Assembly: GCA_964615175.1 (NCBI GenBank)
Contig: CAZTOV010000003.1
Location: 3,708 to 67,707 of the forward strand
Direction of reading: 5' to 3'
Length of the DNA: 64,000 nucleotides
Source of the DNA: an uncultured Burkholderiales bacterium
GTDB taxonomy: Bacteria; Actinomycetota; Acidimicrobiia; IMCC26256; JACPCJ01
Part shown: positions 14,544-60,173 of the stretch, piece by piece
Position numbering within the stretch: the stretch's first letter is position 1
How the letters are laid out: every line of letters begins with the position of its first letter
The notes under the pieces: model-generated
What the model was told of the DNA's origin: nothing
Seen by the model: the letters and a program-made list of their open reading frames with translations, nothing else
The model's database searches: none
Made by a program: the position numbers and the translations under genes

Positions 14544-14616
14544 GCCGGGATAGCTCAGCTGGCAGAGCAGCGCATTCGTAATGCGCAGGTCAGGGGTTCG
14601 AATCCCCTTCCCGGCT
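14544..14616 (+). tRNA. tRNA-Thr (anticodon CGU)
   Basis: Hand-folded cloverleaf. Acceptor GCCGGGA/TCCCGGC, D arm GCTC-AGCTGGCA-GAGC, anticodon arm GCGCA-TTCGTAA-TGCGC, T arm AGGGG-TTCGAAT-CCCCT, discriminator T. CCA is not encoded. Confidence 0.95.
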
Positions 14617-14634
14617 CAATGATCCTCTGATCTC

Positions 14635-14689
14635 GGGTGATGCTTACCTGAGCGCCATGCACAGCGCTCGGTGCGCGGATAACTGTGGG
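14635..14689. repeat. Left-arm repeat downstream of tRNA-Thr (recurs at 45199-45253)
   Basis: Ungapped alignment of 14635-14689 with 45199-45253 gives 49/55 identities, including a 32-nt exact run TGCACAGCGCTCGGTGCGCGGATAACTGTGGG (14658-14689 = 45222-45253). Confidence 0.85.
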
Positions 14690-14888
14690 TGTCCACCGGG
14701 TCTGTCTCGGAACTGCTCATTTAGGTGCGAGATGTCGGGGAGGAGGTGAGTCTGCCGGTGACGCAAATCCCACGAGAGGTATGCCGGCTCCGTGAGGCTC
14801 GCGCGCTTACGCAGTCGACGCCGCTGACCTCCGCGGGAGGACCTCCATCACAGATCGACGTGTTGTCGCTGCGGTACGGTCCCGGCTC

Positions 14889-15770
14889 ATGGGCCTTCGA
14901 GTCGGGGATGTTCACCTCCACGTGAGTGTCGACGGCGAGGGCAACGAGCCGGCTCTGTTGTTCTTGCACGGGCTGACCGACTCCAGTGCCGCGTCGCGGT
15001 GGATCGTCCCCCGGCTCGCCGATCGCTATCGGGTCGTCTCGTTGGACTTTCGTGGGCACGGTCGGTCAGATCGCGCGGCGGGGTACGTCACGCCTGACTT
15101 CCTGAACGACGCGGTCACCGCGTGCGAGCAGGTAGCCGGCGCCGGCTGTGTGGTGATCGGCTGGTCGTTCGGCGGGCTGATCGGCGCGGCCCTCGCCCAA
15201 CAGCGCCCCGATCTCGTGCGGGCGTTGTTCCTCGAAGACCCCGTGCTGGTCGACCCGGCAGTGCGGTCCGACCTGCTCGGCGACGATGGCGTCATGGTCC
15301 GCGACATCTTCGCCGGGGCAGAAGAGTTCTTCGCGCATGTCGCTCAGTGGCAGCGAGACGGCCTCTCGGTCGAAGAGGTGGCGTCTGTGCTCGAGTCGAT
15401 GACGAGCCCACTGGGCGTTCCCTACTCAGAGGCGTACTTCCCCGACTCCATTCGGGCCCTCGCCGAGGGCAGGCTGCAGTTCGACCTGGGCGCGCTCGAC
15501 GACTTCGCCACGGCGCGCTCGTCCCGTGACGCTGAGCTGGTGTTCGACCCGGCCCGTCCGATCGATGTGCCCGGACTCGTCCTTGCGGGCGACCCATCGG
15601 TCCCAGGTGTTCGAACCAGACCCATCGACATCGAACGTCTCCGCGCCACGAGCCCGAGGATCAACCACGAGACCATCCACGGCGCAGGGCATTTCATGCA
15701 CGCCGAGCGCAACTCCCGAGACACCTATTCAGAGGCACTCACGGCGTTCTTGTCGGGTCTCGACACATGA
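14889..15770 (+). CDS. Alpha/beta hydrolase
   Basis: 293 aa. LLFLHGLTDSS, nucleophile elbow GWSFGG, C-terminal HGAGHFMH. Confidence 0.8.
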   Translation: MGLRVGDVHLHVSVDGEGNEPALLFLHGLTDSSAASRWIVPRLADRYRVVSLDFRGHGRSDRAAGYVTPDFLNDAVTACEQVAGAGCVVIGWSFGGLIGAALAQQRPDLVRALFLEDPVLVDPAVRSDLLGDDGVMVRDIFAGAEEFFAHVAQWQRDGLSVEEVASVLESMTSPLGVPYSEAYFPDSIRALAEGRLQFDLGALDDFATARSSRDAELVFDPARPIDVPGLVLAGDPSVPGVRTRPIDIERLRATSPRINHETIHGAGHFMHAERNSRDTYSEALTAFLSGLDT

Positions 15771-16039
15771 ATTGAAGGAGATCGGCCGCCCGCGGACGTC
15801 TCGTAGGCTTGACCGGTAGAGGGCGTGCGCGGATCAGGGGCTGCTCTGGCGCCGACTGGCCATGATGGCGGGTTCACTCGCCTGTGCGTGTCGCCCACCG
15901 GTCCAGGACTTGTTCGTTCCTGGCCGTCGCCTGACCGCGGCCGGTCGGCGGGGATGGTCGGAGCGTCCGCCCGCTTCAGGGATTGAGCGTCCGCACGACA
16001 GGACCCGGAACGAGCAAGTGAGAATCGGGCTCAGTGGTG

Positions 16040-16058
16040 CCCCACGAGTTTCGTTCTG
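16040..16058. repeat. 19-nt direct repeat partner (CCCCACGAGTTTCGTTCTG)
   Basis: Exact 19-mer also present at 33298-33316. It lies in the 400-bp non-coding gap between convergent genes. Confidence 0.6.
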
Positions 16059-16172
16059 GGCGCTCCGCTCCGGGGTCCTGTGGTGCCCAGGGACCTCGGA
16101 TGTCGGCCGCCCGAACATTTCGATGCTCGGGCGGCCCGCTGGCGTTGACCTGCCTTGATCGACGTGGTCGAT

Positions 16173-17250
16173 CTATCCAGCGTGGGCGATGTAGTAGTTG
16201 TTCAGGATGTCGCCGTCGACGGTTTCGACCTCGATACGCGTAAAGCCGGCATCGGTGAGCATCTGCCGCGCCTTCTGTTCGCCCCACGCAGTCCCGAGAC
16301 CCATGCCGCCCTCAGCGAGCGACACAGTCATGCAGTGCATGGTCGACACTGAGTAGATGAAGGGGCCCAGGGGGTGCTCGACGTTGTTGGCGACATCAGT
16401 GTCGGCGGCGATGTCGACGCACAGGAATACGCCGTCGGGTCGGAGCGACTTGGCGATCCCGGCGAGCACGAGGTCGGGTCGCGCCTGGTCGTGGATGGTG
16501 TCGAAGGCGGTGATGAAGTCGTACCCGGTCGACCCATCGAGATCCGCGGCGTCGGCGACGACGAACTCGGCGTTGGTGAGTCCGAGGTCGCCGGCCCCGG
16601 CGCGGGCGGCGGCGATGGCGTCCTCGGAGAAGTCGATTCCGGTGAAGCGGCTCTCCGGGTAGGTCTGGGCCATGAGGTTGACGGCGTGGCCGGAGCCGCA
16701 GCCGATGTCGGCAACATCGATGCCCGCGGCGAGACGTTCGGGGAGGCCGTCGACGAGCGGCAGTGTCGTATCGATGAGGGTGGCGTCGAAGGTTTGGGCG
16801 CTCATCTCGGCCATGAGCTTCGTGAAGGTTGGGAACTCCGAGTAGGGGAGGCCGCCACCCTCGCGGAAGCAGGCGACAATGTCGTCCTCGACGTCGGCGA
16901 GCATCGATACCAGCTGCATGTGCGCGGCCAGATTGTTGGGTCCAGCGGCACGTGTGATGGAGAGCGCGTGTTCGACCGGAAGTGCATACGTGGCGTGTGC
17001 CGCGTCGTGCTCGACGACGCCTCCGACCGTCATCGCCCCCAGCCACTCACGCACATAGCGCTCATCGAGGTTCGCCTTCGAAGCAATCTGCTCACTTGTT
17101 GCCGGGCCGGTGCCGGACATGACATCGAAGAGCCCGGTGCGGTGGCCGATGCTTGTCATGAGGGCCAGGCTGCCACCGTTGAGGATCCGGATGACCTCTG
17201 CGGCGAACTCTTCCGCCCGCTGTTCGTTGACTGTGACTGCTGTTCCCATG
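16173..17250 (-). CDS. Class I SAM-dependent methyltransferase with N-terminal winged-helix-like domain
   Basis: Real gene is the C-terminal 359 aa of ORF 16173..18308, from ATG 17250 (MGTAVTVNEQ..). SAM motif VADIGCGSGH, then GIDFS. The upstream ORF extension is antisense to the TetR gene. Confidence 0.85.
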
Positions 17251-17270
17251 GGGAGCCTTCCTGACGTGTT

Positions 17271-17319
17271 TCTCCACTTGTAGAAATACTTGAACCCGAG
17301 TATTCTCCAAGTGGAGAAG
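17271..17319. promoter_or_regulatory. Candidate TetR operator in a divergent promoter region
   Basis: 11-bp perfect inverted repeat TTCTCCACTTG (17271-17281) / CAAGTGGAGAA (17309-17319), between the methyltransferase (start 17250, minus) and TetR (start 17355, plus). Confidence 0.5.
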
Positions 17320-17354
17320 GCTGTCAACCGTCCCTGACTGATCGCGAGGGAGCG

Positions 17355-17987
17355 ATGACCCTCCCCAAAGCTGAAGCCTCCTGGCCCGCTGCCGAGATCC
17401 CACGACATCCGACGGCTGAGGCGCTGGTGGAGGCGACCGAGCGGCTCTTGATCGAAGACGGCTACGCGGAGCTCTCGACGCGTCGTATCGTTGAAGCCGC
17501 AGGCCAGACCCACGGGTCGATCCGGTACCACTTCGGGAGCCTCGAAGCACTCATCGTCGCGGTGGTGGAGCGCAGCACGATCGGGATCACCGAGCGGCAG
17601 CGCGCGATGTATCAGTCGGACCTGCCCTTCCGGGCCAAATGGGAGCAGGCGATGGAGTGGTTCGAAGAGGACCTGGCCGCGGGGTACCCGAAGCTGCTCG
17701 CCGAGCTGTTCGCCGCCGCCTGGAACGTGCCCAGGTGCCGCGCCGGACTCCGCCGGACCATGGAGATCTGGGCCGAGGTGCTCGAGGAGGCGGTGGCCGG
17801 GGCAGCCGAGGAGTATGGCGTCGACGCCGACGATGACCTCGTTGCGGGCGTCGCCGGCCTCATCGGCGCGTCGCAGCAAGGTCTTTTGTTCCAGCGGCTG
17901 GCTGGGATCGACGTCGAGCACGAGGCGACCGTGGCGGTGGTCGGGCGGGCCATCGACCTGTTGGAGGAGAGAGGGGCGCAACGATGA
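17355..17987 (+). CDS. TetR family transcriptional regulator
   Basis: 210 aa. N-terminal HTH region LLIEDGYAELSTRRIVEAAGQTHGSIRYHFGS. Its stop overlaps the next gene's start (ATGA at 17984). Confidence 0.85.
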   Translation: MTLPKAEASWPAAEIPRHPTAEALVEATERLLIEDGYAELSTRRIVEAAGQTHGSIRYHFGSLEALIVAVVERSTIGITERQRAMYQSDLPFRAKWEQAMEWFEEDLAAGYPKLLAELFAAAWNVPRCRAGLRRTMEIWAEVLEEAVAGAAEEYGVDADDDLVAGVAGLIGASQQGLLFQRLAGIDVEHEATVAVVGRAIDLLEERGAQR

Positions 17988-20119
17988 GAGCACGGACTCC
18001 CGACGAGAGAGGCGTCCTCGATCGAGACGGCGTGAACGTCGCCTACGAGGTGCACGGTAGTGGGGATCCCGCCATCGTGTTCCTCCCCGCGTTCCCCGTT
18101 GCCGACGAGCGGCTGTGGAAGGCGCAGGTCCCGCACTTCGCCCGGCGGCTCCGCGTCTTGGTGCTCGAGCCGCGGGGCCACGGCCGTTCCGATCGGCCGA
18201 CTGACCCCGACGCGTACCGGCGCGAACACCGGGTAGGCGACATCGAAGAGCTGCTCGACGCGACGGGCACCGATCGTGGCGTCCTGGTGGCGATGTCGCA
18301 AGGGGCACCCATTGCTCTCCAGTTCGCGGCCGACCATCCCGAGCGAACGGTCGCGGTCGTGGCCCTCGGAGCGGCGTTGCCGCACGAGCTCGGTGTCGAG
18401 GCGGCCGACAACCTCCGCACCTTCGGTGTCGATGTCGACGGAGGACGCCCGTTCAACTTCGTATGGGAGAAGGACTACGAGAGTTTCGTCGAGTTCTTTA
18501 GCCGGATGGTTGCCAACCAACCTCATTCCAGCAAGATGATCGAGGATCTCACCGAGTACGCGCACGAGACCACCGCCGCGATCCTCACCGCCCACCAGAC
18601 GGGCGATCTGCGATCCCAACTCGAGTCGGACGAGACGCTCGAGGATCTCGCGGAGCGGATCCGCTGTCCCGTGATGCTGATCCACGGCACCGACGACGCC
18701 ATCGCCCGCGTCGAGTACTCGAAGCGTGCCGCTGAGATCCTTGGCGCGCGTCTCGAGATTCTCGAGGGCGTGGGTCACGGGATGCAGGGCCGCTACCCCG
18801 TACGGTTCAACAACCTGGTCGACGACTTCCTTGCCGAGGTCGTCTCCGGAGACCGGATTGGGGGAGCCGAGCCGATCGGTCGAGAGCGCCTTCCGACACC
18901 GCCCATGCGGCGATCGGAGGGCCCGCGGGTCCTCTATCTGTCATCGCCCATCGGGCTGGGTCACGCTCGCCGCGACCTGGCGATCGCCGACGAACTCCGC
19001 GCCCTCGTTCCCGGTGCACGGGTCGAATGGCTGGCTCAGGACCCCGTCACCCGGTTCCTCGGTGCCCGCGACGAAGTGATCCATCGGGCCAGTGGCGAGC
19101 TGGCGAGCGAGTCGGGGCACCTGGAGTCCGAGACCGACGAGCACGATCTTCACGTGTTCGAGGCCGTGCGGCAGATGGACGAGATCCTGGTGAAGAACTT
19201 CATGGTCTTCCTCGATGTCCTCCGCCGGGGTGACTTCGACCTCGTGATCGGCGACGAGGCATGGGACGTCGACCACTTCCTCCATGAGGAGCCGCATCTC
19301 AAGGAGACCCGCTTCGCCTGGCTCACCGACTTCGTCGGCTACCTCCCGATGCCGGCGAAGGGGGAGCGTGATGCGGAGCTCGCGGCGGACTACAACGCGG
19401 AGATGATCGAACACGTCGAGCAACATCCCGAGATCCGCGATGCCGCGATCTTCGTCGGCGAGCCGGATGACGTCATCGAGCTTCCGTTCGGCCCCGGGCT
19501 CCCTGCAATCCGCGAGTGGACCGCGCATCACTACGAGTTCAGTGGCTACGTGACCGGCTTCGACCCTGCCACGCTCCCCGAGCGGAACGAGCTACGAACA
19601 GAGCTGGGTTACGGGCTCGACGAAGTGATCTGTATCGTCGCCGTGGGTGGGTCGGGAGTCGGCCGCCCACTGCTCACCCGCATCCTCGACGCGCACCCAC
19701 TCGCTGCAGTAGAAGTTCCCGGGTTGCGGACCGTCCTCGTGACCGGCCCCCGCATCGAACCGGACTCGCTGCCCGACGTGCCCGGAGTGGACAAGCGAGC
19801 ATTCGTACCGGACTTACACCGGCACCTGGCGGCCGCCGATGTCGCGGTCGTGCAGGGTGGCTTGACGACCACGATGGAGCTCACCGCCGCCGGCGTCCCG
19901 TTCCTTTACGTTCCGCTCCTGAACCACTTCGAGCAACAGTTCCACGTTCGTCATCGACTCGAGCGCTATCGGGCTGGCCGCCCCGTCGATTACGCGTCGG
20001 CGACGCCCGAGTCTTTCGCCGAGGAACTCGTCTCCGCGATCGGCGTCAAGACCGACTACCGGCCCGTCATTGGAGACGGCGCCGCGAACGCAGCGGCCAA
20101 GATCGCTGCAATTCTCTGA
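17984..20119 (+). CDS. Alpha/beta hydrolase fused to a glycosyltransferase-like (GT-B) domain
   Basis: 711 aa. The N-terminal ~290 aa carry hydrolase motifs (AMSQGA elbow, GVGHG). The C-terminal part, LYLSSPIGLGHARRDLAIADEL..GGLTTTMEL, resembles MGT/GT28-type transferases. Confidence 0.7.
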   Translation: MRARTPDERGVLDRDGVNVAYEVHGSGDPAIVFLPAFPVADERLWKAQVPHFARRLRVLVLEPRGHGRSDRPTDPDAYRREHRVGDIEELLDATGTDRGVLVAMSQGAPIALQFAADHPERTVAVVALGAALPHELGVEAADNLRTFGVDVDGGRPFNFVWEKDYESFVEFFSRMVANQPHSSKMIEDLTEYAHETTAAILTAHQTGDLRSQLESDETLEDLAERIRCPVMLIHGTDDAIARVEYSKRAAEILGARLEILEGVGHGMQGRYPVRFNNLVDDFLAEVVSGDRIGGAEPIGRERLPTPPMRRSEGPRVLYLSSPIGLGHARRDLAIADELRALVPGARVEWLAQDPVTRFLGARDEVIHRASGELASESGHLESETDEHDLHVFEAVRQMDEILVKNFMVFLDVLRRGDFDLVIGDEAWDVDHFLHEEPHLKETRFAWLTDFVGYLPMPAKGERDAELAADYNAEMIEHVEQHPEIRDAAIFVGEPDDVIELPFGPGLPAIREWTAHHYEFSGYVTGFDPATLPERNELRTELGYGLDEVICIVAVGGSGVGRPLLTRILDAHPLAAVEVPGLRTVLVTGPRIEPDSLPDVPGVDKRAFVPDLHRHLAAADVAVVQGGLTTTMELTAAGVPFLYVPLLNHFEQQFHVRHRLERYRAGRPVDYASATPESFAEELVSAIGVKTDYRPVIGDGAANAAAKIAAIL

Positions 20120-20295
20120 CACCGCTCTGAGGGCGTGCCGGAAACCGCCTCCTGTCGAGAACCTTCTCAGGTTTGCGCCACGCGTTTGCCCCACCCGTTC
20201 TGATATTCGACGGCAGAATCGGGTAGGGAGCGGACCGTCGGCCGCTTCTAGGTCTTCCTGTCCGGGGGATGTCCTTGCAGGTCCGCCACTTTGTC

Positions 20296-21729
20296 GGCTC
20301 TCCGCGATGAACGCTGGGGCGCGATGGGTGGGTTCGCCGTTCCATAGGGGTCCACCACCCGCGCCGAAGGCCTCCGCATTGTTGCGACTGCCGAGTCAGC
20401 AACAACGAGGGAGGCCTCCGGTGATGATCGAACGTAGTGCGGGTGCGACCGCGCTCTTGGGACTCGACGGCTTCGTGGCCGGCGCCCAGGTCGAAGAGGA
20501 CGGCGAGGTGTGGATCCTTGTCGAGACCACCGACGACGTGGCGGGCTGCCCGTTGTGTGGGACGCGGGCGGTCGGCAACGGCCGCCGCACAGTCAAGGTC
20601 CGCGACCTGCCCGCGGGCGACCGTCCGGTGGTGTTGGTGTGGCGGAAGCGCACCTGGGTGTGCCCCGCTCCCGAGTGCCCGGTCAAGTGCTTCTCGGAGG
20701 AGACCGACGCCGTCGCCCCGCGGGCGTGCCTCACGGAGCGGGCCCGGGCGGAGATCTGCCGGCGGGTGGGCAACGACGGCCACTCGGTCGCCCAGACAGC
20801 CCGGGACTTCGGGGTGTCGTGGGCCACCGCGATGGCGGCGGTGATCGACTACGGCAAGCCCCGCGTCGACCATCTCACCGCCCTGGGGAAGCCCGAGGCG
20901 CTCGGCCTCGACGAGACGTTGTTCCTCACGGCGACCGCGACGCGTCCCACGCTCATGGTCACCGGGTTCGTGGACCTCGACCGGCACCGGCTCCTCGACG
21001 TCGTGCCTGGCCACAGCGCCCACGCGGTCACCGGCTGGCTCGAGACCAAGCCGCCGGTGTGGAAGGCCGGCATCCGAGTCGTGGCACTCGACCCGTTCCG
21101 CGGCTACGCCACCGGCATCCGCAGAGGTCTGCCGCGTGCCCGCCAGGTCGTCGACCACTTCCACGCCATCCGCCTCGCCAACCGGACCCTCGACGAGGCC
21201 CGCCGACGCGTCCAGAACGAGACCCTCGGGCACCGCGGCCGCAAGGGCGACCCCCTCTACCGGATCCGCCGGCTCCTCCTCGTCGCCCACGAACGGCTCA
21301 GCGACACCGGCTGGGAACGCATCGAGAACGGGCTACGCCAAGGCGACCCCTACGACGAAGTCGGATCCGCCTACCTCGCCAAGGAGCTGCTGCGCGAGGT
21401 CTACGCCACCACCTCACCCCAGGTGGCGAGGGCCCGCCTCCGCACCTTCGACGCCCACTGCCACGACAGCAGCGTCCCCGAACTCGCCCGCCTCGCCCGC
21501 ACCATCCGATCCTGGAAGGCCGAGATCCTCGCCTGGCACGACACCGGACTCACCAACGGGCCCACCGAAGCCACCAACCTGCTCATCAAGAAGATCAAGC
21601 GGGTCGGCCACGCGTTCCGGAACTTCGAGAACTATCGGCTCCGACTCTTGCTCCACTGCGGCATCCAATGGAAACCTCGCCGGGTCGCCTCAATGCGAGG
21701 CCGTAACCCAGCGTTGGTCGCGTAGAGCC
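20296..21729 (+). mobile_element. ISL3-family insertion sequence with 8-bp target-site duplication
   Basis: IRL GGCTCTCCGCGATGAACGCTGGGG (20296-20319) versus the reverse complement of the right end, GGCTCTACGCGACCAACGCTGGGT, matches at 20/24. Flanking direct repeat ACTTTGTC at 20288-20295 and 21730-21737. Confidence 0.85.
20424..21725 (+). CDS. ISL3 family transposase
   Basis: 433 aa from ATG 20424 (RBS GAGGGAGG). N-terminal Zn-finger-like CPLCG..VCPAPECP. The C-terminus (TNGPTEATNLLIKKIKRVGHAFRNFENYRLRLL) is typical of ISL3. Confidence 0.9.
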   Translation: MIERSAGATALLGLDGFVAGAQVEEDGEVWILVETTDDVAGCPLCGTRAVGNGRRTVKVRDLPAGDRPVVLVWRKRTWVCPAPECPVKCFSEETDAVAPRACLTERARAEICRRVGNDGHSVAQTARDFGVSWATAMAAVIDYGKPRVDHLTALGKPEALGLDETLFLTATATRPTLMVTGFVDLDRHRLLDVVPGHSAHAVTGWLETKPPVWKAGIRVVALDPFRGYATGIRRGLPRARQVVDHFHAIRLANRTLDEARRRVQNETLGHRGRKGDPLYRIRRLLLVAHERLSDTGWERIENGLRQGDPYDEVGSAYLAKELLREVYATTSPQVARARLRTFDAHCHDSSVPELARLARTIRSWKAEILAWHDTGLTNGPTEATNLLIKKIKRVGHAFRNFENYRLRLLLHCGIQWKPRRVASMRGRNPALVA

Positions 21730-21743
21730 ACTTTGTCGGGGCG

Positions 21744-22781
21744 GTGATGGACCCTTTGGTTGCAGACCAATGCGACCGAAAGGAGTCCATCACCGTGACC
21801 CCCGACCAGATCATCTTCCATCGTCGCGTCCGCGCGATCGAACATGCTGAGGAATCCGGGAACGTCTCGGAGACCTGCCGGGTCTTCGGGATCTCCCGAA
21901 CCACGTTCTACAAGTGGCAGAACCTGGCCGAGGACTATGGCCTCGATGCTCTGATGCCCAAGGGCCGTCGTCGCCCCCAGATGCCGAATGCCACCCCGAC
22001 TCACGTCGTCGAGGAGATCCTCACCTTGGCGGTGATGCGACCCACACTGGGGTGCCGGCGCTACGCCGACGAGTTGGAGCAGCGTGGCTATGCGGTGTCG
22101 AAGACCACGGTGCAGAAGATCCTGGTGGACCACGGCCTCGGCCGGCGTTCCCAGCGGGTGGCGAGAGCGGCCGCCCTCGCTGCGCTCACCGCCGGGCTGG
22201 TCACCGAGGCGGCGGTCGACGACGAACTGTTCGGGTTCTGCCACTTCGCTTCGGACCCGGGCCAGCTCGTGGCGCTCGATTCCTTCTACATCGGGAACCT
22301 CAAGGGCGTGGGGAAGGTGTACCAGCTCACCGCGGTGGACACCGCCACGCGCTGGGCGGTGATGCTGTTGCTGATCGGCCCCGTCACCGCCGAGGACACC
22401 ATCCGCTTCGTGGACCACGCCGTGCGCCGCTTCCGCCGCCACGGCATCCGAGTGCGCAGCGTCCTCACCGACAACGGACCCGAATACAAGGCCCGAGCTT
22501 TCCAACACGCCCTGGCCGCCAAGGGCCTCCAGCACCACCGCACCCCTCCTCGGAGCCCCAACCACAACGCCGTGTGCGAACGCTTCCAGGGCACCGCCCT
22601 CCAGGAATGCTGGCGCCCCGCCTTCCACCGCCGACGCTTCACCAGCGTCCGCCAGCTCCAAGCCGAAGCCGACTCGTGGCTGGTCGACTACAACACCCGC
22701 CGACGCAACCACAGCGACTTCATGCGAGGCCGCACCCCACTCGAGGTTCTCGACAGCCACAAGAAAAAGCAGGCAGCATGA
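21744..22781 (+). CDS. IS481-family (rve/DDE) transposase
   Basis: 345 aa. HTH region CRVFGISRTTFYKWQ. DDE core (LVALDSFY..., TDNGPEYK..., RSPNHNAVCERF). Confidence 0.9.
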   Translation: MMDPLVADQCDRKESITVTPDQIIFHRRVRAIEHAEESGNVSETCRVFGISRTTFYKWQNLAEDYGLDALMPKGRRRPQMPNATPTHVVEEILTLAVMRPTLGCRRYADELEQRGYAVSKTTVQKILVDHGLGRRSQRVARAAALAALTAGLVTEAAVDDELFGFCHFASDPGQLVALDSFYIGNLKGVGKVYQLTAVDTATRWAVMLLLIGPVTAEDTIRFVDHAVRRFRRHGIRVRSVLTDNGPEYKARAFQHALAAKGLQHHRTPPRSPNHNAVCERFQGTALQECWRPAFHRRRFTSVRQLQAEADSWLVDYNTRRRNHSDFMRGRTPLEVLDSHKKKQAA

Positions 22782-22842
22782 CCATCAGCCAAAGGGTCCA
22801 CCTGTCAGGTCGACTCCCGGGCGGGAAGGCCTAGAAGAGTGA

Positions 22843-24459: not shown

Positions 24460-24502
24460 AGGTCAACAGCTTCGGCAGGCCAACGCAACCGACCCACCGC
24501 CA

Positions 24503-26458: not shown

Positions 26459-26549
26459 GAGCGTGCGATTTCCTGCCGATGCCGCTGAGGAACTTGCTGA
26501 GATCGCCATCGAATGGGCCGCAGAGCGAGGTGCGGTCTTCGAGTGACCG

Positions 26550-50961: not shown

Positions 50962-51190
50962 CTACCCTTACTGACCAACGAGCCTGCCCCACGGTTGACA
51001 CGATCGGACAGATCTCTCCGGAGAGCCGCCTGACATATCGAGCCGGCTCGACTGTTTGTTGTCCCGAAGTGCCTGCTCGAGGTGGCGGCCAGAACGGGTC
51101 GTCGCAACACCAGACACACCGGACACGCGACCGCGAGACATCGGCACCTCGCGTGCGCGTTCGAGGGCAGTGAGTTGCGTGGGGGTGCCG

Positions 51191-51802: not shown

Positions 51803-51846
51803 CACTACAACTGTAGTGATACTGGCATCACTACAACCGTAGTGAT
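51801..51846. promoter_or_regulatory. Tandem 20-bp palindromic operators between divergent TetR and SRPBCC genes
   Basis: ATCACTACA-AC-TGTAGTGAT (51801-51820, perfect) and ATCACTACA-AC-CGTAGTGAT (51827-51846, 1 mismatch), 26 bp centre to centre. Each overlaps one of the two start codons. Confidence 0.7.
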
Positions 51847-52327
51847 GCCAGACCGACTGGAAACGGAAATGACCGTGCGCGCAGAAGCCACGAGGGTGGT
51901 TCCGGCCACCAGCCAGGAGGTCCTCGAGTTCGTTCTCGATCTCGAACGATACCGGCGGGCCGACACCAAGATCGGGCGAGTGACCCAGCCGATCGAGTTG
52001 GACGAGAACGGTGAAGGCCGCACCCGCTACTGGGGTCGGCTTCGAGGCACCCCGCCGGTTCCCGACACCAACATCGTCCAGCTCCGGCGATGGCACGAGT
52101 TGATCTTCATCGGGGCCCCTCGCCAACCCGCCCGACTGGTCCTCGATTTCACCGGCCGATTCACCTGCACCGACATCGACGGCGGCTGCGAGGTCACCCA
52201 CGGATACGAGATGACGTTCCGCCGACCCTTCCGGTGGATCTATGAACCGCTCCTGGACCCGTGGTTACAGACCGAACTCGAAGCCGAACTCGACCGCGTC
52301 CAGCGCATCCTTGGCGGTGAGCAGTGA
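51845..52327 (+). CDS. SRPBCC family protein
   Basis: ATG 51845 (or 51869). ..RVVPATSQEVLEFVLDLERYRRADTKIG.. is typical of the SRPBCC/polyketide-cyclase fold. Its stop overlaps the next start. Confidence 0.7.
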   Translation: MPDRLETEMTVRAEATRVVPATSQEVLEFVLDLERYRRADTKIGRVTQPIELDENGEGRTRYWGRLRGTPPVPDTNIVQLRRWHELIFIGAPRQPARLVLDFTGRFTCTDIDGGCEVTHGYEMTFRRPFRWIYEPLLDPWLQTELEAELDRVQRILGGEQ

Positions 52328-52767
52328 CCGATACCGCAACCGGTGACGAGCGCAAACGGCGCCGGGCGGTTGCACTCCAGCGGTGGCTCCTCAACCCACC
52401 GATGAAGCTGCTCGTCTGGCTCGGTCTCATCCCTGGCCACGTCATCGTCGAGACACGCGGACAGAGGACCGGGCGTCGTCGACGGACCGTCGTCGGCGCT
52501 CACCACGACGGCGACACGGTGTGGATCATCGCCGAGCAGGGCCGACACGCGGCCTGGGTTCGCAACCTCGAAGCCGAACCCGAGATCCGGGTCCGACACC
52601 GGGCACGATGGCGTCTCGCCCGAGCAGTGGTGGTAGACGGCGACGACCCCGGGGAGCGCCTGGCGACATGGCGCCGGCCCGGGCATGCCCGCCTCATCCA
52701 GGCGTTCGGGACCCAACTCACAACGGTTCGAGTCGACCTTGCAAAGTCGACCACACCGACGGGCTGA
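52324..52767 (+). CDS. Deazaflavin (F420)-dependent nitroreductase family protein (Ddn/DUF385-like)
   Basis: 147 aa. LNPPMKLLVWLGLIPGHVIVETRGQRTGRRRRTVV..WIIAEQGRHAAWVRNLEAEPEIRV. Confidence 0.8.
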   Translation: MTDTATGDERKRRRAVALQRWLLNPPMKLLVWLGLIPGHVIVETRGQRTGRRRRTVVGAHHDGDTVWIIAEQGRHAAWVRNLEAEPEIRVRHRARWRLARAVVVDGDDPGERLATWRRPGHARLIQAFGTQLTTVRVDLAKSTTPTG

Positions 52768-53112
52768 TATCGACATCGCCGCGTTGACGATGCGCTGCCC
52801 AGGGTGCTGACGAGCCGGCGATTGGGGGCACCCTGAGCCGAAGCCCTGATCCTCGTCGGCGGAGCGAGTCTGTGGAAACTTTGAAGTCACCGGAGCGTCG
52901 TGATTTCGGCGGATTCGGGCAAGATCACGACGCTTCCGTGGCGTGAAATGCGAGTCCGATCGTTCAGGCGTCGCCCCCATCACCCGTATCAGTGCCGGTC
53001 GGTGGCACCGAATACCGGACGCCCATGGAATCAATCCAGACCCCCACGTGACGCGCAATTGGTTCTTCCCTTCCCCAACTCCTCGGCTTGCGGGTAGGTG
53101 AAGGCCGAGCGG

Positions 53113-53604
53113 CTAGATGTGGTGACCGGCGAGGGGTGTGGCGAGTCGGATGAGGTTGTGGCGGGCGGCCCATACGTAGAGCTCGCAGGGTGCGCATCTT
53201 CCGATGGCGGCCTCGAAGGTCACGGCGACGGCGTTGGCGAGCACCAGCATCCAGCCGATGGTCGAGTAGCCGGCGGCGATGGCGACGGCGACTGAGGAGA
53301 GACCGACGCCTCCGAGCGCGGCTGAGAATCGTGGCGGGCGGGCGTCGATGGGAGGGACGTCGGCGAGGCGTGGGGCGACGAGCCGCTGGTGGATCTGGAT
53401 GAAGAGCGCCCAGGAGGGCCAGCGCAGCGCTCCGATCCCCAGGATGAGCCCGGTGACGGCGACGAGCACCCAGGAGTCGGTCAGCCAGGCCACTACGAGA
53501 AGCACCGCCTGACCGATGAGCTGAGCTCGTTGGGCGTTGCCGTCGATGAGGGGTGCGGTGGTCGAAGATCCAGAAGTCATCAGAATTCGTAGTATGGTCA
53601 GCAT
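53113..53604 (-). CDS. DUF4395-like membrane protein
   Basis: 163 aa (alternative ATG 53580). Four hydrophobic segments and a C-terminal CAPCELY motif. Confidence 0.65.
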   Translation of the reverse strand: MLTILRILMTSGSSTTAPLIDGNAQRAQLIGQAVLLVVAWLTDSWVLVAVTGLILGIGALRWPSWALFIQIHQRLVAPRLADVPPIDARPPRFSAALGGVGLSSVAVAIAAGYSTIGWMLVLANAVAVTFEAAIGRCAPCELYVWAARHNLIRLATPLAGHHI

Positions 53605-53607
53605 CCG

Positions 53608-54207
53608 ATGACCACGTCAACTCGCGACCGATTGTTGGATTCGGCCCAGGAACTGTTCGCCCACGAGGGCTTCGATGGCACGAGCGTGGGAGAGATCGAA
53701 GAACACGCCGGGCTCACCAAACGCGGAGGTGCGCTCTACAAGCACTTCCCCTCCAAGGAAGCGGTTCTCGCTGCGGTGATCGACCGCCACGCCGGCAGCG
53801 TCGCCGCCGCCCGCGACGTGGGCGCGTTGCTCCCCCTCGGCGATCTCCGCGCCGAGCTCACCCTCGTCGCCCGTTTCACACTTGCGGAACTCGACCAGGA
53901 AGAGGAGATCCACCGCATCCTCGACCGGGCCGGCGACCGGATCCCCGACGCTCGTGAGCGAATGCTCACCGAGGTGCTCGAACCCGCCTATCGCGACCTC
54001 AGCGAGCTCCTCCAACGGTGGGTCAACAACGAATCGGCCCTCGAAGATCCCGATGCCGTCGTCATGCTGCTCGTCGGCGGGCTGGTGAATCTCCGCCGGA
54101 ACCGCTGGACCTTCGGCCGAGTCCCGCTCGACGTCGAGGACGACCGTGCCATCGTCGCATGGGTCGAGACAGCCCTCGGCGTCATCGAACACTTCGCCAC
54201 CGAATAG
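53608..54207 (+). CDS. TetR family transcriptional regulator
   Basis: 199 aa. LLDSAQELFAHEGFDGTSVGEIEEHAGLTKRGGALYKHFPSKEAVL. Paralogous to 51191..51802. Confidence 0.9.
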   Translation: MTTSTRDRLLDSAQELFAHEGFDGTSVGEIEEHAGLTKRGGALYKHFPSKEAVLAAVIDRHAGSVAAARDVGALLPLGDLRAELTLVARFTLAELDQEEEIHRILDRAGDRIPDARERMLTEVLEPAYRDLSELLQRWVNNESALEDPDAVVMLLVGGLVNLRRNRWTFGRVPLDVEDDRAIVAWVETALGVIEHFATE

Positions 54208-54457
54208 CACGGGGGCAGCCCACGGCCCGCGTATGACCGCTGGTTTCGTGTGGCCGAGAACGGCGACACGCGCTCGGGGGCGAAATTGTAGGGATGTCGC
54301 GGATTCTCGGCCCGGTGGCGTTCGCCATCGCCTCTGTGGTCACGGTCGGTGCGCCGGACCTTGTACGGCGACCTCCCCGAATCCGTGCTCGGGACAGCGA
54401 GGGAACTGAGTTCGGCGGCGGGAGGGGTGTCGTGAGTGAACCTCTGGCGTCAGTTGG

Positions 54458-57400
54458 TCAGGCCAGGCGCTCGGCCGGGTGCAGCTCGGGCTCCTCGACG
54501 AGGCGCTCCATCATCTCGGTCTCGGGCTCCGGCGGCATCCCGAGGTCTTCGAGGACGGCACGGCATCGTCCGACGGAGCGGCGCGCCGCGGCCCGGTCGC
54601 CGCGCCCGAGATGCACCGCCGTGAGGAGGCGGTGGGCCGGCTCCGACCACTCGTCGGCTTCCACCGCTCGCGTTGCGAGGTCGAGGGCGTCGTCGTACGC
54701 CCGTTGGGCCAGGAGGAGTTCACCGGCCCTTACGGCGGCCTCCACGAAACGGCTGCGCAGCGTGTCACGACGCGGCTGGGCCCAGTCCTCGTACGGGGCA
54801 TCGGCCAGGTAGTCGCCCCGCCAGAGGTCGACGGCCTCCTGCAAGTGGCCCAGCGCCACCGACGGCGTACCTGTGTCGTCTGCCTCCCGGGCCTGTGCGA
54901 GCAGCCGTTCGAAGTCCCACGCGTCGACCCGGGCATGGTCGCCTGCGGCGAGGCGCAGGCGGGGCCCTTCGGTACGGATCACGAACGGCGCTTCGCCGGG
55001 GCCTCGCTCCGGTTCGAGCACGCCATGCAGGTAGTTGAGCGTCGTGCGCAGGTTACGACCCGACGCCTCGCTGTCGAGGTCGGGCCACAGGGCGGTTGCC
55101 ACCTCTTCCCGGGTCGCGCTCCTGCGATCGACGAGGTACATGAGGAGGGCCCGCACACGTTCCCGGCGCCAGTCAGGTTCGTCGACGGCCTCGCCGCCTC
55201 GTCGCAACTCCAGCGGGCCGAGCACGCTGATCTCGAGGGGGCGAGCCGGAGGCACCGGGAGTTCGGCGAGCATCGAGCGGGCGGCCCGCGCCACCGGTTC
55301 CACCACGTGTTCGGAGGCTCGACGCAGGGCGGTGCGGGCTGCTCCTTCGCCGTGCTCGAGGAACCACTGGAGCAAGTTCGTGCCCGCGGTCACGCCGGCG
55401 GCGTGACCGGCCACGGCCAACTCCACGGCCCACGGCAAGGGGAGATGGGCGAGGACGAATCCGGGTTCGCGCCACTCCAGCGTTCGCACCGGGTCGAAGT
55501 CGCCTGCGTCACGGATCGCGATGAGCGCATGTGCCAGATCGCGCGCGTGCGCCAGATCCGGTCCCAACTCCTTCTCGTCCCAGATCGGACGCAACTCGGG
55601 GACCAGTACCTCCACGAGGGCGAGGTGCATACGGTACTGGCGCTCGACGCCCGTTGACGCGAGCGCCTCGGCGTCGACGGCCGCTCGTAGGGAATCGGCG
55701 GCGCGGCCCTCGTCGCCCTCGATGACGGCGACGGACGCCTCGGCGATGCTCAGGGAGCGACCGGGTTCACTCCGGCGTGACCTGCCGACCGCCCGCCGGG
55801 CCTCACCGAGCGCCTCGCGTGCTTCGTCGAGTCGTCCGACGTACGCGGTCCCGAACGCGAACGAGGTCGCGACCGTGGCCCGATAGCGGGCGAGGTCGTC
55901 GGGCGCGGCCTCGACCTCCGCCCGGCGTTCGAGGGCCACCAGCGGCTCGCCGGCGTAGAAGAGGGCCCACAGGGGAGCGATGCGCGCGGCGACGAAGGCG
56001 TCTCCGCCGAGACGGGCGACTTCGGCCGCGTGTGGCACTGCCTCACGGGCCCGACCGAGCAGGATCAGAGCGCGGCAGGCGAACCACTCGACGACAGCCC
56101 GCCAACCGTCCGAGAGGGTGTCGCCGTCGAGCTGGCCGGCGGCGGCGAGGACGGCCTCGTCGTCCCCGCTCATCTCGGCAAGGCCGAGGTGGGCGAGCTT
56201 GGCCAGCGTCTTCGCCTCGTCGGCCCCCGCGGCCTCGAGTTCGAGGACCCGACCGACCACCCGGCCGAGCGCTTCAGCGTCGTCGTGGAGCCACGCCAGG
56301 TAGGCGCGTTGGCCCAGCGCTGCCACCTCCCCGGCGACGTCATCGGCCTCGCAGAAGCCGGCGATCGCCCGCTCGAGAGGCTTGATCGCGGTCTCGGCGC
56401 TCGGGTCGTGCGCCCGGGTGACCATCGCTTCCAGAAGGGCGGTTTCGGGCGCGTCGGGATCACGGTGGCGGAGTAGCTCGAACCAGCGAGTGGCGGTGTC
56501 GGCGGTGAGGGGCGCGTGCCCGGCCCCGCACGCGCCCACCACGATGGAAGCCAGCTCGCCCCAGTCGGAGACCGCGACCAGCAGCTCGACGGCGCGCTCC
56601 TCGTCGCCTCGGGCCCGGAGCGCCTTGGCGGCGCGGCGCCGCACCTCCTCGGTTTCGACGGGGGCCAGCAGGGGCGCGCTGACGGGTTCCCAGAGCCGGT
56701 GCGGGACGAACCACCCCGGGGACCGTTCGCGGAGCATCGGGACGCTGGCCGCCAGGCGGTCGAGGTCGACCACGGGGCGGTCGGCAGGGAGGCAGGCACG
56801 GAGCAGGTCCTCGTCCGCACCGCCGACGGCCACGAGGGTCGCCAGCGTGACGCGGAGATCGTCGTCCAGGTGATCGAGGACCTCCTCCCAGAGGAAGTGC
56901 TCGCTTCCGTGCCGGCCTGCTGACGCGACCAGCTCGGCGAGGGCCGGCCACCCCGCGGTCTCTCGCAGCTCGCCGACCTCGATACCGCGGAGCGCGGCGA
57001 ACGCGTGCATCTCCTCGTCGCGGAAGCGCAGTTCGTCCTCGTCGACGACCGCGATCGCGTCCTGGGCGGCGTCACGGGCGAGTGGCAGGTCGAGTGGGGG
57101 CCGCGAGGCGACCACGAGGTGCCCGTTGCCCGGCAGCGCCCGGGCGAGCCGGTGGACGAGGGCGCGTACGGGATGGTCCTCGTCGTAGGCGTGGAGGTCG
57201 TCGACAACCAGCGCCACCTCGAGGGGCGATCGACTCCACACCCCTTCGACCACGGCCTCGGCGAGGGTGGCCGGATCGTGGACCGGCTCGCCGGCGACGA
57301 GCCCCGCGTCCCGCAGCCGCTCGGCGGCGATCCTCAGCGTGACCTCGCCGGGACCGAGCCCGAAAGGCACGTCGAGCCCCCGCGGCGACAGGGCGTTCTC

Positions 57401-57547
57401 CTCGACGGCCTGGGTGAGGAGAGTGGTCTTGCCGAACCCGGCACCGGCGACCACGGCGACGACGCGACGCTGCCAGCGCCCGTGGAGGCGCGTGACGAGG
57501 CGGGGGCGCACCACGAGGTCACGGGTAGCTGCCCGCCCGCCGGCCAT
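54458..57547 (-). CDS. STAND ATPase with C-terminal SARP wHTH + BTAD (inverted AfsR-like order)
   Basis: 1029 aa. N-terminal P-loop VVAGAGFGKTTLL and Walker B LVVDDLH. Central helical repeats. C-terminal LEISVLGPLELRRGG..ALWPD..LWRGDYLADAPYEDW.. Confidence 0.8.
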   Translation of the reverse strand: MAGGRAATRDLVVRPRLVTRLHGRWQRRVVAVVAGAGFGKTTLLTQAVEENALSPRGLDVPFGLGPGEVTLRIAAERLRDAGLVAGEPVHDPATLAEAVVEGVWSRSPLEVALVVDDLHAYDEDHPVRALVHRLARALPGNGHLVVASRPPLDLPLARDAAQDAIAVVDEDELRFRDEEMHAFAALRGIEVGELRETAGWPALAELVASAGRHGSEHFLWEEVLDHLDDDLRVTLATLVAVGGADEDLLRACLPADRPVVDLDRLAASVPMLRERSPGWFVPHRLWEPVSAPLLAPVETEEVRRRAAKALRARGDEERAVELLVAVSDWGELASIVVGACGAGHAPLTADTATRWFELLRHRDPDAPETALLEAMVTRAHDPSAETAIKPLERAIAGFCEADDVAGEVAALGQRAYLAWLHDDAEALGRVVGRVLELEAAGADEAKTLAKLAHLGLAEMSGDDEAVLAAAGQLDGDTLSDGWRAVVEWFACRALILLGRAREAVPHAAEVARLGGDAFVAARIAPLWALFYAGEPLVALERRAEVEAAPDDLARYRATVATSFAFGTAYVGRLDEAREALGEARRAVGRSRRSEPGRSLSIAEASVAVIEGDEGRAADSLRAAVDAEALASTGVERQYRMHLALVEVLVPELRPIWDEKELGPDLAHARDLAHALIAIRDAGDFDPVRTLEWREPGFVLAHLPLPWAVELAVAGHAAGVTAGTNLLQWFLEHGEGAARTALRRASEHVVEPVARAARSMLAELPVPPARPLEISVLGPLELRRGGEAVDEPDWRRERVRALLMYLVDRRSATREEVATALWPDLDSEASGRNLRTTLNYLHGVLEPERGPGEAPFVIRTEGPRLRLAAGDHARVDAWDFERLLAQAREADDTGTPSVALGHLQEAVDLWRGDYLADAPYEDWAQPRRDTLRSRFVEAAVRAGELLLAQRAYDDALDLATRAVEADEWSEPAHRLLTAVHLGRGDRAAARRSVGRCRAVLEDLGMPPEPETEMMERLVEEPELHPAERLA

Positions 57548-57668
57548 GTTCGGGAGGGTAGCTCAGGTCGAATTGTCAGGATTCGCGAGAGATTGGAGCG
57601 CCCGCTGACGTGTCGCTGACGCGACGGTCTGCACCATGCGGGGCCATGGACTGTGAGGGAGGTTCCCG

Positions 57669-58478
57669 ATGAAACGCTGCGCTCGGCGCTGGCTCGCCCT
57701 GGTCGTCGCGTTCGTGCTCGTGGGTGCTGCGTGCAGCGATGGCGACGGGAACGGCGACGCTTCGGACGGTGCTCCTGTCGAGGGGACCGCGGTCGACGGG
57801 ACGAATGGTGGAGGCCCGGAGGGGGACTCGGAAGAGCAGGACACCTCGGACGACGCCGACAGCGTGCCCGCCGAGACGGAGGACGACTGTTTCCTGGAGG
57901 AGCCGGGCGAGGACACGGAATGCTTCATCGACGTGGTCGACTTCGAGGTCGAGCGGGTGCCGCCCGGAGCCGCCGCTGACGACGACGCCGCGGTCGGCGC
58001 GGGGACCGGCCCCGTCGCCGTCATGGGGCGAGTCACCGGCGCGCCGTGCGCGGGCGTACGGGCGACGCTCGTCACCGCCGACGACCTCGAACAGCTCGGC
58101 TCGGGCCCCGAGGTGTTGTTCACGATGGCGGTCCGACCCGCGGGTACGCCCGGGTCGGGGAACAGCAAAGACACCACGGTCTCGTTGCGGTACCGCGACG
58201 GGGGGTGGCAGGAGCCCGAGGCGCTCGGGCCCGGAGGACCCAGCGAACGACCTGCCGAGGGAACGTATTCGGGCGGCGTCGAGGGCCGGAATGTCGTGCT
58301 GCAGCTCCACGCCCACAATGACGGGAGCTGCATCAGCGACGACGACGGGATGCGCCTCCACGTTTTCGCCGCGGAGGACGGCTTCGGCGGCCCGGGTAGC
58401 TCCAACGCAACGGTGTACGACGTCGTCGGGGTCGAGGGGAAGTTCGACGTCAAGCCGGTCGGCGCGTACGTCGGCTGA
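57669..58478 (+). CDS. Lipoprotein (paralogous C-terminal domain with 58494..60008)
   Basis: 269 aa. Signal/lipobox LVVAFVLVGAAC. The C-terminal GTYSGGVEGRNVVLQLHAHNDGSCISDDDGMRLHVF..VGAYVG matches GTFSARVDGTNVVLELGALADGGCILESDEMRLKFE..ISAYLG in the neighbour. Confidence 0.7.
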   Translation: MKRCARRWLALVVAFVLVGAACSDGDGNGDASDGAPVEGTAVDGTNGGGPEGDSEEQDTSDDADSVPAETEDDCFLEEPGEDTECFIDVVDFEVERVPPGAAADDDAAVGAGTGPVAVMGRVTGAPCAGVRATLVTADDLEQLGSGPEVLFTMAVRPAGTPGSGNSKDTTVSLRYRDGGWQEPEALGPGGPSERPAEGTYSGGVEGRNVVLQLHAHNDGSCISDDDGMRLHVFAAEDGFGGPGSSNATVYDVVGVEGKFDVKPVGAYVG

Positions 58479-58493
58479 ACGGAGACCCAAGCT

Positions 58494-60008
58494 ATGAGGA
58501 GGTTCTCGACGATGTTCACGTGGCGTCCGATCGCACTCCTGGTCGCGCTGACCCTGGTGGCCGCGGCCTGCGGGAGCGACGGCGACGGCGAATCCGCAGT
58601 CGCGGGCGGTGATTCAGAGCAAGCCGAGGAGGAGGAGATCGAACTTGAGCCCGAGGTCTTGATCAAGGCCGACGAGGGTGGCTCGGTCGGCCTGCCCGAC
58701 GGTTCGGTACAGCTCGACGTCCCACCCGGCGCGCTGGCGGAGGACACGACCATCTCGGTGAGCAGGGTGAAGCGTGCGGATTATCCCGAGGAGCTAGACC
58801 CCAGCGACGGGCGGGTTGGGGAGGTCTATGAGTTCGAGCCCGACGGCCTCGAGTTCGAGCAGCCGGCGACCGTCACTCTCCGTTCTGAGCGGAGCAGCGT
58901 CGAGATTGACGACGGCCAGGTGCAGATGGGCCTGTTGCTCTCGCGGTCATCGGACGGTGAATGGGAGGTGCTCGACAACCCTGCGACCGAGGCGAACTTG
59001 TCAGAGGAACGCCGAAGCGTCACCGCGAAGCTGACGCACTTCAGCAGGGTCGTCGACGTCGACAGCGACATCGTGCTGGTGATCACCCCCAAGAGCGTCG
59101 AGGTCAACCCGCCCGCGTCCTGGACGGCCGAGGTCGGGTGGTCGAACGCGGGCACAGACACCGTGGAGGTCCTTGAGTCCGAGTGGACGGCGACGGGTTC
59201 GGTCACTGCGGGCGACGGGTTCGTGCCGATGGAAGCCATGAGTCCGGGCGATCAGCTACGTGCATCCAACGAGTTCTCGTGCCAGGAGGAGCCCGGTGGC
59301 ACCTTCGGCTTCTCGATCAGGCTCGGGATCCAGGCGTTGGATCTGGGTGAGGCACTCGCGGCCGCACTCGCCGGCCAAGTCCCAGGCCGGTTGAGCGTCC
59401 ACGGCGACGCCGTGTGCAGCGACGAGGTCACAACATCGAGCATTGACATGACCACCGAGCAGGACATCGTCGAGCAGGCCGGCGATTGTTTCCGGCCCAA
59501 GGAGGGCGAGGCCGCGTGCGTGGTCGACGTGCTCGACTGGATCGTCGAGGTGGGCATCACCGTCGGCGAGGACGCCGGTGGGTCGGGTGACGAGTCGGCC
59601 CTCGGCCGGGCCGCACGGACGGAGTGCGCGGGCCAGGGCGTCCGGGTGACCGCCGAGACCGACACCGATCTCGAGTCACTCGACTCCGGTCTGAGCGGCG
59701 AGGTGGTCATGCGGATCCATCCCGACGGCGGTGCCGACTCGGGCGTCGGGATGAGCTACCGGGGCGGCTCGTGGTCGACGTTCGCCTTCGGACCGGGCGA
59801 GAGCGAGCCGGCCGAGGGCACGTTCTCGGCCCGCGTCGACGGCACGAACGTCGTCCTCGAGCTGGGTGCCCTCGCCGACGGGGGCTGCATCCTCGAGAGC
59901 GACGAGATGCGGCTCAAGTTCGAGATGGCTCCGGGGAACGACCGCATCTACGACCAGGCTCTCGAGGGGCTTCAGGAGTACGCGCCCATCAGCGCGTACC
60001 TCGGGTGA
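58494..60008 (+). CDS. Lipoprotein (paralogous C-terminal domain with 57669..58478)
   Basis: 504 aa. Signal/lipobox LVALTLVAAAC. Same C-terminal domain as the upstream gene. Confidence 0.7.
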   Translation: MRRFSTMFTWRPIALLVALTLVAAACGSDGDGESAVAGGDSEQAEEEEIELEPEVLIKADEGGSVGLPDGSVQLDVPPGALAEDTTISVSRVKRADYPEELDPSDGRVGEVYEFEPDGLEFEQPATVTLRSERSSVEIDDGQVQMGLLLSRSSDGEWEVLDNPATEANLSEERRSVTAKLTHFSRVVDVDSDIVLVITPKSVEVNPPASWTAEVGWSNAGTDTVEVLESEWTATGSVTAGDGFVPMEAMSPGDQLRASNEFSCQEEPGGTFGFSIRLGIQALDLGEALAAALAGQVPGRLSVHGDAVCSDEVTTSSIDMTTEQDIVEQAGDCFRPKEGEAACVVDVLDWIVEVGITVGEDAGGSGDESALGRAARTECAGQGVRVTAETDTDLESLDSGLSGEVVMRIHPDGGADSGVGMSYRGGSWSTFAFGPGESEPAEGTFSARVDGTNVVLELGALADGGCILESDEMRLKFEMAPGNDRIYDQALEGLQEYAPISAYLG

Positions 60009-60139
60009 GATGGGACGGACGAACCGCGGCAGACCTCCCGGCCGAGGTTCATTCCAGTGGGTCGCCTGATGACGCGCGGGATTTCGGACCGGCACTCGGT
60101 ACGGTGAGCCCCCGATTGCACAGCACGGGTCATCCAGAC

Positions 60140-60173
60140 TTCGTCATGCGCAGGTCAGGGGTTCGAATCCCCT
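60140..60173 (+). repeat. Copy of the tRNA-Thr 3' half (attR-like)
   Basis: TTCGTCATGCGCAGGTCAGGGGTTCGAATCCCCT versus 14575-14608 TTCGTAATGCGC..CCCCT: 33/34 identical, direct orientation. The acceptor 3' strand has diverged (GGCCGAC vs TCCCGGC) and no 5' half is present. Confidence 0.85.

Follow-up and report, generated by a model that had tools for sequence, protein, structure and literature searches.

We analysed a 64,000-nucleotide stretch of contig CAZTOV010000003.1 (positions 3,708 to 67,707 of the forward strand, assembly GCA_964615175.1; hereafter, the window) from an uncultured member of the Actinomycetota, in which an intact tRNA-Thr(CGU) gene follows holB and a second copy of its 3′ part lies 45.6 kb downstream, shortly before a gene pair for an extracytoplasmic function (ECF) sigma factor and its anti-sigma factor. 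The interval between the tRNA-Thr gene and the sigma factor gene (14618 to ~63100) is, in our judgement, probably a decayed composite genomic island that was built up as insertions recurred at a tRNA-Thr hot spot. A first-pass annotation had described a 45.6-kb accessory segment bounded by the two tRNA copies; this is a mosaic and not one element, and accessory DNA continues past it to ~63.1 kb. The parts of this mosaic are two units bounded by arm-like sequences (X and Y), a nested pair of insertion sequences (IS), a low-GC block with a tRNA-Glu relic, and further DNA beyond the repeat (Table 1).

The tRNA-Thr gene and its partial repeat

ARAGORN called two tRNA-like genes in the whole window, a tRNA-Thr(CGT) and a "tRNA-Glu", of which only the tRNA-Thr was confirmed by Rfam at its gathering threshold. 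The tRNA-Thr gene starts 41 nt after holB, and its acceptor stem (gccggga/tcccggc) is perfectly paired. A stretch of this gene, ttcgtaatgcgcaggtcaggggttcgaatcccct, occurs again near the far end of the interval in direct orientation with 33/34 identity, which was claimed in the first-pass annotation and which we confirmed by (i) reading both loci and (ii) self-BLAST (E 2.5e-8). The matching stretch runs from the anticodon loop through the T stem, where it ends; 28 nt of the repeat are exact, and the sole mismatch, an A-to-C change, falls on the penultimate base of that loop. When up to 3 mismatches were allowed, the 28-mer was found at only two places in the window, against 0 expected from 100 shuffles. 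The part of a tRNA gene from the anticodon loop onwards is the part that tRNA-targeting integrases use.

Beyond the repeat, the 3′ acceptor strands are unlike each other (tcccggc in the proximal copy vs ggccgac in the distal copy), and the distal copy is preceded by neither a D arm nor a 5′ acceptor, so the sequence also bears out what had been said earlier of the distal locus. We considered whether the distal copy could be a complete second tRNA gene and rejected this, because ARAGORN, run on both loci, called the intact tRNA-Thr at the proximal one and no tRNA at the distal one, where Rfam gave no tRNA match even at E ≤ 1.

Arm-like sequences and the internal junction

Two short sequences adjoin the tRNA copies on the inner side of the interval, namely Y, which is P′-arm-like and lies 17 nt past tRNA-Thr, and X, which is P-arm-like and ends 10 nt before the distal fragment. 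Each of them has a second copy within the interval (X′ and Y′), and there X′ directly abuts Y′. The genes beside the X and Y copies are unrelated, which argues that short functional arms have been conserved and cargo has not. Both Y copies contain a 23-nt motif, GCACAGCGCTCGGTGCGCGGATA (14659-14681 and 45223-45245), which may be a recombinase arm-binding site. A similar sequence, GCACAGCGCTCAGGCGTGGATA, is present on an independent soil metagenome contig (Ga0137369_10120075; locus L040) at 784-805 (minus strand), where it lies directly upstream of a tRNA-Thr 3′ fragment; it matches the Y motif at 20/23 positions, a score reached by 0/4953 random window segments. This locus shows the layout in miniature, with (i) a complete tRNA-Thr(CGU) gene, (ii) a 0.95-kb insert carrying a toxin-antitoxin-like pair, and (iii) a tRNA 3′ fragment, which keeps the native acceptor strand. 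A second soil metagenome locus, L076, likewise consists of a complete tRNA-Thr(CGU) gene, a 0.8-kb insert, and a tRNA 3′ fragment. The occurrence of the Y motif beside the L040 fragment suggests that the arms are part of a broader group of sites associated with tRNA-Thr.

Scans of viral contigs with X, Y, and the 23-nt motif gave no match, and a BLAST search of plasmids and phages with a reconstructed X-core-Y attP returned no plasmid match and a phage match to the tRNA core only. Two 7-mers that are equally spaced in X and in the L040 arm were dropped as deciding evidence, as the anchored alignment of the two arms was not significant. The idea that the Y-to-X units are DDE transposons was also rejected, since no inverted repeats were seen at their ends when these were compared by eye.

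We favor a scenario in which at least one, and probably two, site-specific integrations by a tyrosine-type integrase would have taken place, with the crossover within the stretch from the anticodon loop to the T arm. Such an event would have left (i) the 34-nt direct repeat and (ii) the arms of the attachment (att) sites, with Y right after tRNA-Thr and X right before the distal copy. The head-to-tail X′-Y′ pair at 45.2 kb would mark the boundary of two related units stacked in tandem by accretion, namely unit A of ~30.5 kb (14.6-45.2 kb) and unit B of ~14.9 kb (45.2-60.1 kb); a directly joined X′Y′ is also what would be expected if the ends of the segment had once been joined in an attP-type site. 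Later on, X′ and Y′ would have lost the core between them, the distal copy would have had its acceptor part replaced, the IS481-family element would have been struck by an ISL3 element, a low-GC defence-like block would have been gained together with a tRNA-Glu relic of its own, and all recombinase genes would have disappeared. The data show the repeats, the break in synteny, the shift in composition, and the lack of recombinase domains; we infer both the order of these events and the type of the recombinase.

The three junctions, ctcGGGtgatg at the left end, gcGGGGGtgatg at the internal junction, and cacGGGtcatc at the right end, allow a different crossover point, namely the X/Y boundary itself with a short core (CGGG/T). 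Two related elements would then have entered, in tandem, a 37-nt spacer between tRNA-Thr and an older tRNA fragment, and the tRNA duplication would be the scar of an earlier, nearly deleted island. Tandem insertion of this kind predicts the X′Y′ junction exactly, with no deletion assumed, and explains why the distal acceptor strand need not match that of the resident tRNA-Thr; moreover, miniature tRNA-to-fragment remnants do occur elsewhere, as in L040 and L076. However, the earlier island would have had to shrink to 37 nt, a common core of 3-5 nt is short for a tyrosine recombinase while no serine recombinase was found, and X and Y are devoid of terminal inverted repeats by eye. Further, the Y-type motif of L040 lies directly against the tRNA fragment, which ties the arms to the tRNA core, and we consider a crossover at the X/Y boundary unlikely. 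A broader proposal would be that X, Y, and the 23-nt motif define an undescribed tRNA-Thr(CGU)-targeting family of uncultured Actinomycetota, made up of recombinase-less, stackable cassettes moved in trans, or else that recombination occurs at the X/Y boundary beside a tRNA relic and not in the tRNA core; we hold this to be quite unlikely.

Gene content and the search for mobility genes

Because the DNA is 68% G+C, genes were picked by their third-position GC (GC3); they were annotated with Pfam. Accessory DNA begins directly after tRNA-Thr and runs 2.9 kb past the distal repeat, and mean GC3, which is 0.89 in the core flanking genes, is lower in all five modules of the interval (Table 1). The GC3 shift and the break in synteny described below together show that accessory DNA makes up the entire interval, the 2.9 kb past the distal repeat included.

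Table 1. Features of the tRNA-Thr to sigma factor interval and its flanks (window coordinates)
Feature	Position	Strand	Basis and remarks
Conserved left flank: topA, MFS transporter, tmk (12771-13391), holB (13388-14503)	8597-14503	+	Pfam
Intact tRNA-Thr(CGU), attL-like island end	14544-14617	+	ARAGORN; Rfam tRNA, 70.2 bits
Proximal 34-nt repeat copy, anticodon loop to T stem end	14575-14608	+	
Y, P′-arm-like	14635-14689	+	89% identical to 45199-45253, E 3e-13
Module A1: alpha/beta hydrolase, helix-turn-helix-methyltransferase (minus strand), TetR, hydrolase-glycosyltransferase fusion	14889-20119	.	Pfam; GC3 0.82
IS481-family element, rve transposase 21744-22781	20245-22837	+	Pfam; 38-nt terminal repeats
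ISL3 copy nested in the IS481-family element	20296-21729		23-nt terminal repeats; perfect 8-bp target duplication ACTTTGTC
Low-GC block (module A2)	22843-33204	.	GC 0.626, GC3 0.72; tRNA-Glu relic at right edge
Degenerate tRNA-Glu-like relic	33132-33204	+	ARAGORN; Rfam 20.4 bits, below gathering score 29
Module A3: methyltransferase, rhodanese, two BTAD-cyclase-STAND regulators, cyclase/dehydrase-like, deiodinase-like, ydhR-like	33530-45024	.	Pfam; GC3 0.85
Internal junction, X′ (45131-45199) abutting Y′ (45199-45253)	45131-45253	+	
Module B: LCM methyltransferase, TetR regulators, ECF sigma and putative anti-sigma (minus strand)	45400-60008	.	Pfam; GC3 0.81 (module B)
Module B, continued: F420-dependent reductase, DUF4395, BTAD regulator, secreted/ZU5 proteins	45400-60008	.	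Pfam
X, P-arm-like	60061-60129	+	78% identical to 45131-45199, E 2.5e-8
Distal 34-nt repeat copy, attR-like relic, without 5′ half or matching acceptor strand	60140-60173	+	
Module C, beyond the repeat: sortase, ice-binding-like surface protein, DSP-type phosphatase (~62205-62690)	60292-62690	-	Pfam; GC3 0.81
Conserved right flank: ECF sigma factor and zf-HC2 anti-sigma factor	63106-63978	+	Pfam

The only mobility enzymes present are two DDE transposases. No Phage_integrase, Resolvase, or Recombinase domain was found by Pfam among the ~55 gene products, and a search for pseudogenes, in which the gaps between called genes (14618-62643) were translated in six frames and open stretches of at least 40 aa, linked by the residue symbol X, were scanned with Pfam, gave no recombinase or excisionase domain. 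The same gap scans recovered a missed sigma-70 factor, a phosphatase, and a deiodinase-like protein, indicating that the approach has sensitivity. The lack of a tyrosine or serine recombinase, as reported in the first-pass annotation, is thus upheld for both genes and gaps; its orphan Xis-like open reading frame is not, as the best candidate (27235-27384, minus strand) had no Pfam or NCBIfam match at E ≤ 0.01. Further, Pfam detected none of the int, xis, rep, and FtsK/SpoIIIE-type transfer modules of actinomycete elements that are both integrative and conjugative (AICEs) in any gene or gap, and no match to prophage genes (capsid, terminase, tail, or lysis). As it now stands, the island is unable to excise unaided, and the most that could mobilise it would be an integrase encoded outside it.

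This last point leads to a reading in which the segment is akin to a cis-mobilizable element (CIME), having lost its own integrase while keeping usable attL and attR sites with their arms, and in which a related integrase, supplied from elsewhere in the genome or by an incoming element, could still excise and move it. The two repeat copies share 97% identity, including an exact run of 28 nt, both arms are retained, and CIMEs as well as their accretion with incoming elements are documented (PMC5704250). However, no partner integrase is evident within 64 kb of the 72-kb contig, the distal copy is without its acceptor part and has an anticodon-loop change, the internal junction is coreless, and the IS insertions and the mosaic content argue for long immobility. 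We regard this reading as distinctly improbable.

The presence of both IS elements and defence-like genes speaks in favor of an island. Within the IS481-family element, the ISL3 copy separates the left terminal repeat from the transposase gene; the outer element abuts the low-GC block, and no target duplication was seen flanking it. Within 22843-32884, this block encodes a SIR2-like protein, a Lit/U41-like peptidase, a HEPN/AbiV-like protein, a NACHT NTPase, and an HNH protein, and it looks like a defence islet. The matches to defence models within it are weak (E 1e-7 to 1e-3, with the NACHT protein weakly matching the EruA/DS8 antiphage model), and no complete known defence system was recognised there. 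At the right edge of the block, the relic is tRNA-Glu-like in its 3′ part and decayed in its 5′ half; possibly, it is another att relic and pertains to the low-GC block itself. This relic is preceded by a 35-nt palindrome (32939-32973) and followed by a tandem pair of GTGTTCCCCACGA (33280-33306).

Among the other island genes, two large paralogous regulators of module A3 (36053-39697 and 41545-45024) combine BTAD/SARP, adenylate/guanylate cyclase, and STAND NTPase domains, and a third BTAD protein (54458-57547) is encoded on the strand opposite to this pair; all three are island-borne. The ECF sigma gene of module B (50407-50961) lies within 49412-50961 (minus strand), where the downstream membrane protein resembles an anti-sigma partner, and is distinct from the sigma/anti-sigma pair of the right flank. 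In module C, the ice-binding-like gene, which adjoins the sortase gene, holds at least five tandem 21-nt repeats at 61118-61268. No homologue of the module C genes was found in the tRNA-Thr to sigma intervals of relatives, and no identical protein is on record for the sortase open reading frame as delimited here. Outside the island, two perfect 49-nt palindromes (3690-3738 and 6065-6113), which are 88% alike, lie on either side of a DEAD-box helicase gene (3731-6034).

Gene order in relatives and the origin of the island

A metagenome scan with the 28-mer returned 46 loci, mostly complete tRNA-Thr(CGU) genes, against which all window proteins were compared by tBLASTn. Many actinobacterial contigs carry, after holB and tRNA-Thr, a homologue of the window's ECF sigma factor (~68% identical) and an anti-sigma gene. 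The sigma gene starts ~85 nt past tRNA-Thr, followed by the anti-sigma gene, in L054 and L064, and the gap between tRNA-Thr and the sigma gene is 1.4-2.7 kb in L070, L073, L074, and L042; the pair also adjoins tRNA-Thr in L057 and L084. The left flank, which in the window also includes a VTT-domain protein gene (minus strand) before topA, has the same gene order in L035 and L084. The latter locus, from a somewhat closer metagenome-assembled genome (GCA_044867425.1) whose HolB and sigma factor are 53% and 76% identical to those of the window, reads VTT-topA-MFS-tmk-holB-tRNA-Thr-DUF2079-sigma-antisigma, that is, with one gene between the flanks vs 48 kb in the window. Overall, the tRNA-Thr and sigma/anti-sigma flanks are ~48 kb apart in the window vs 0.1-2.7 kb in distant relatives.

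As to the empty site that the first-pass annotation proposed to look for, an empty-like gene order was seen in distant relatives (L054, L064, and L084); no empty site was found in a close relative, and a scan of a genome collection with generic HolB patterns returned distant matches only. Apart from copies in the same organism, HolB has its best match, at 80% identity, on a 1.3-kb contig. Identical-protein look-ups located the same organism in Logan runs SRR12687320 and SRR12687321, where the contigs (1-3 kb) end inside tRNA-Thr or start inside Y and show no alternative junction, which is consistent with assembly breaks at repeats. No integrase was found beside other tRNA-Thr fragments (L063, L080) or between tRNA-Thr and the sigma gene in relatives.

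The relatives also bear on the source of the distal copy. While the proximal acceptor stem is similar to that of L035, the distal acceptor flank is slightly closer to the cgccggc type of other tRNA-Thr genes than to the resident tRNA, and the distal fragment aligns over 38 nt at 94.7% with L062, L067, L069, L071, and L077. A plain displacement of the native 3′ half does not account for the distal copy, whose mispaired acceptor strand implies that the right junction was altered or was derived from another element or host. It could even be unrelated to the insertion of the segment, being a decayed second tRNA-Thr or a passenger fragment, with the 48 kb having arrived through routes that are not site-specific, namely IS events and homologous recombination of the flanks. 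Besides the acceptor strand, this would accord with the IS elements present and with an interval that varies in relatives likewise without integrases. However, it leaves unexplained (i) why X and Y are found so close to the tRNA copies (within 10-17 nt) and are joined at 45.2 kb and (ii) why the identity starts exactly in the anticodon loop and in direct orientation, and we find it very improbable.

For a composite island built by integration into tRNA-Thr, the reading we prefer, several observations are unfavorable. First, the distal ggccgac is unable to pair with the tRNA-Thr 5′ strand gccggga, while the textbook model expects the native 3′ acceptor strand in the distal copy, where L040 indeed has it. 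Second, there is no tRNA core between X′ and Y′; a tandem array formed via the tRNA core should keep this core (~71 nt) at its internal junction, and the reading must assume a loss of ~71 nt there. Third, no integrase, excisionase, replication, transfer, or capsid hallmark gene was found in unit A or unit B, and the anchored alignment of X with the P arm of L040 was not significant (p ~0.02-0.14). Fourth, empty-like configurations were seen only in distant relatives, with HolB 41-53% identical. Lastly, L082 and a JGI contig (3300056388) have >10 kb of unrelated genes upstream of the sigma gene, given which some of the island content could have arrived otherwise; these fillings, together with the gap differences among relatives, indicate that the tRNA-Thr to sigma interval is a variable region across the group. 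The earlier proposal that the segment was acquired by site-specific integration thus finds support in synteny, GC3, and the X and Y ends, and is weakened by the distal acceptor mismatch and the coreless X′Y′ junction.

The composite island belongs to a well-known class, that of tRNA-linked genomic islands with AICE/CIME-like accretions. AICEs integrate in tRNA genes, including pSE101 in a Thr-tRNA, and two adjacent AICEs with a shared att site have been noted (PMC2440964). Like AICEs, the island lies directly 3′ of an intact tRNA gene with a repeat of the tRNA 3′ part from the anticodon loop, and has accessory cargo of a composition distinct from the core genes in an actinobacterial host. Unlike AICEs, it is without integrase, excisionase, replication, and FtsK/Tra-type transfer genes, spans 45-48 kb vs 9-24 kb, has a repeat that stops before the acceptor strand, and is a mosaic with IS elements. 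Accretion of integrative elements and CIMEs at one att site has been described for ICESt1/ICESt3 and a CIME in Streptococcus thermophilus (PMC5704250). The island resembles such arrays in its integrase-less units and att relics, stacked at one target gene, and in an internal junction where one unit's right arm meets the left arm of its neighbour; it differs in that this junction is without the core repeat that defines CIME borders and in that no partner element was seen. The SIR2-like, Lit-like, HEPN/AbiV-like, NACHT, and HNH genes, located in an integration hot spot, also recall defence islands beside tRNA genes, although the weak defence-model matches, with no complete known system recognised, set it apart from them. 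In its present state, it is not an intact mobile element of any of these kinds.

For specialists in mobile elements, nothing here is surprising; what is new is an example in an under-sampled lineage and, possibly, a family-specific arm motif. For annotation, the boundary of the island is better set at the sigma gene than at the tRNA fragment, and the segment should not be regarded as a single element. The island also illustrates decay through tandem stacking, recombinase loss, nested IS elements, and att erosion, and it documents a tRNA-Thr(CGU) insertion hot spot, from holB to the ECF sigma/anti-sigma genes, in a poorly sampled actinobacterial lineage.

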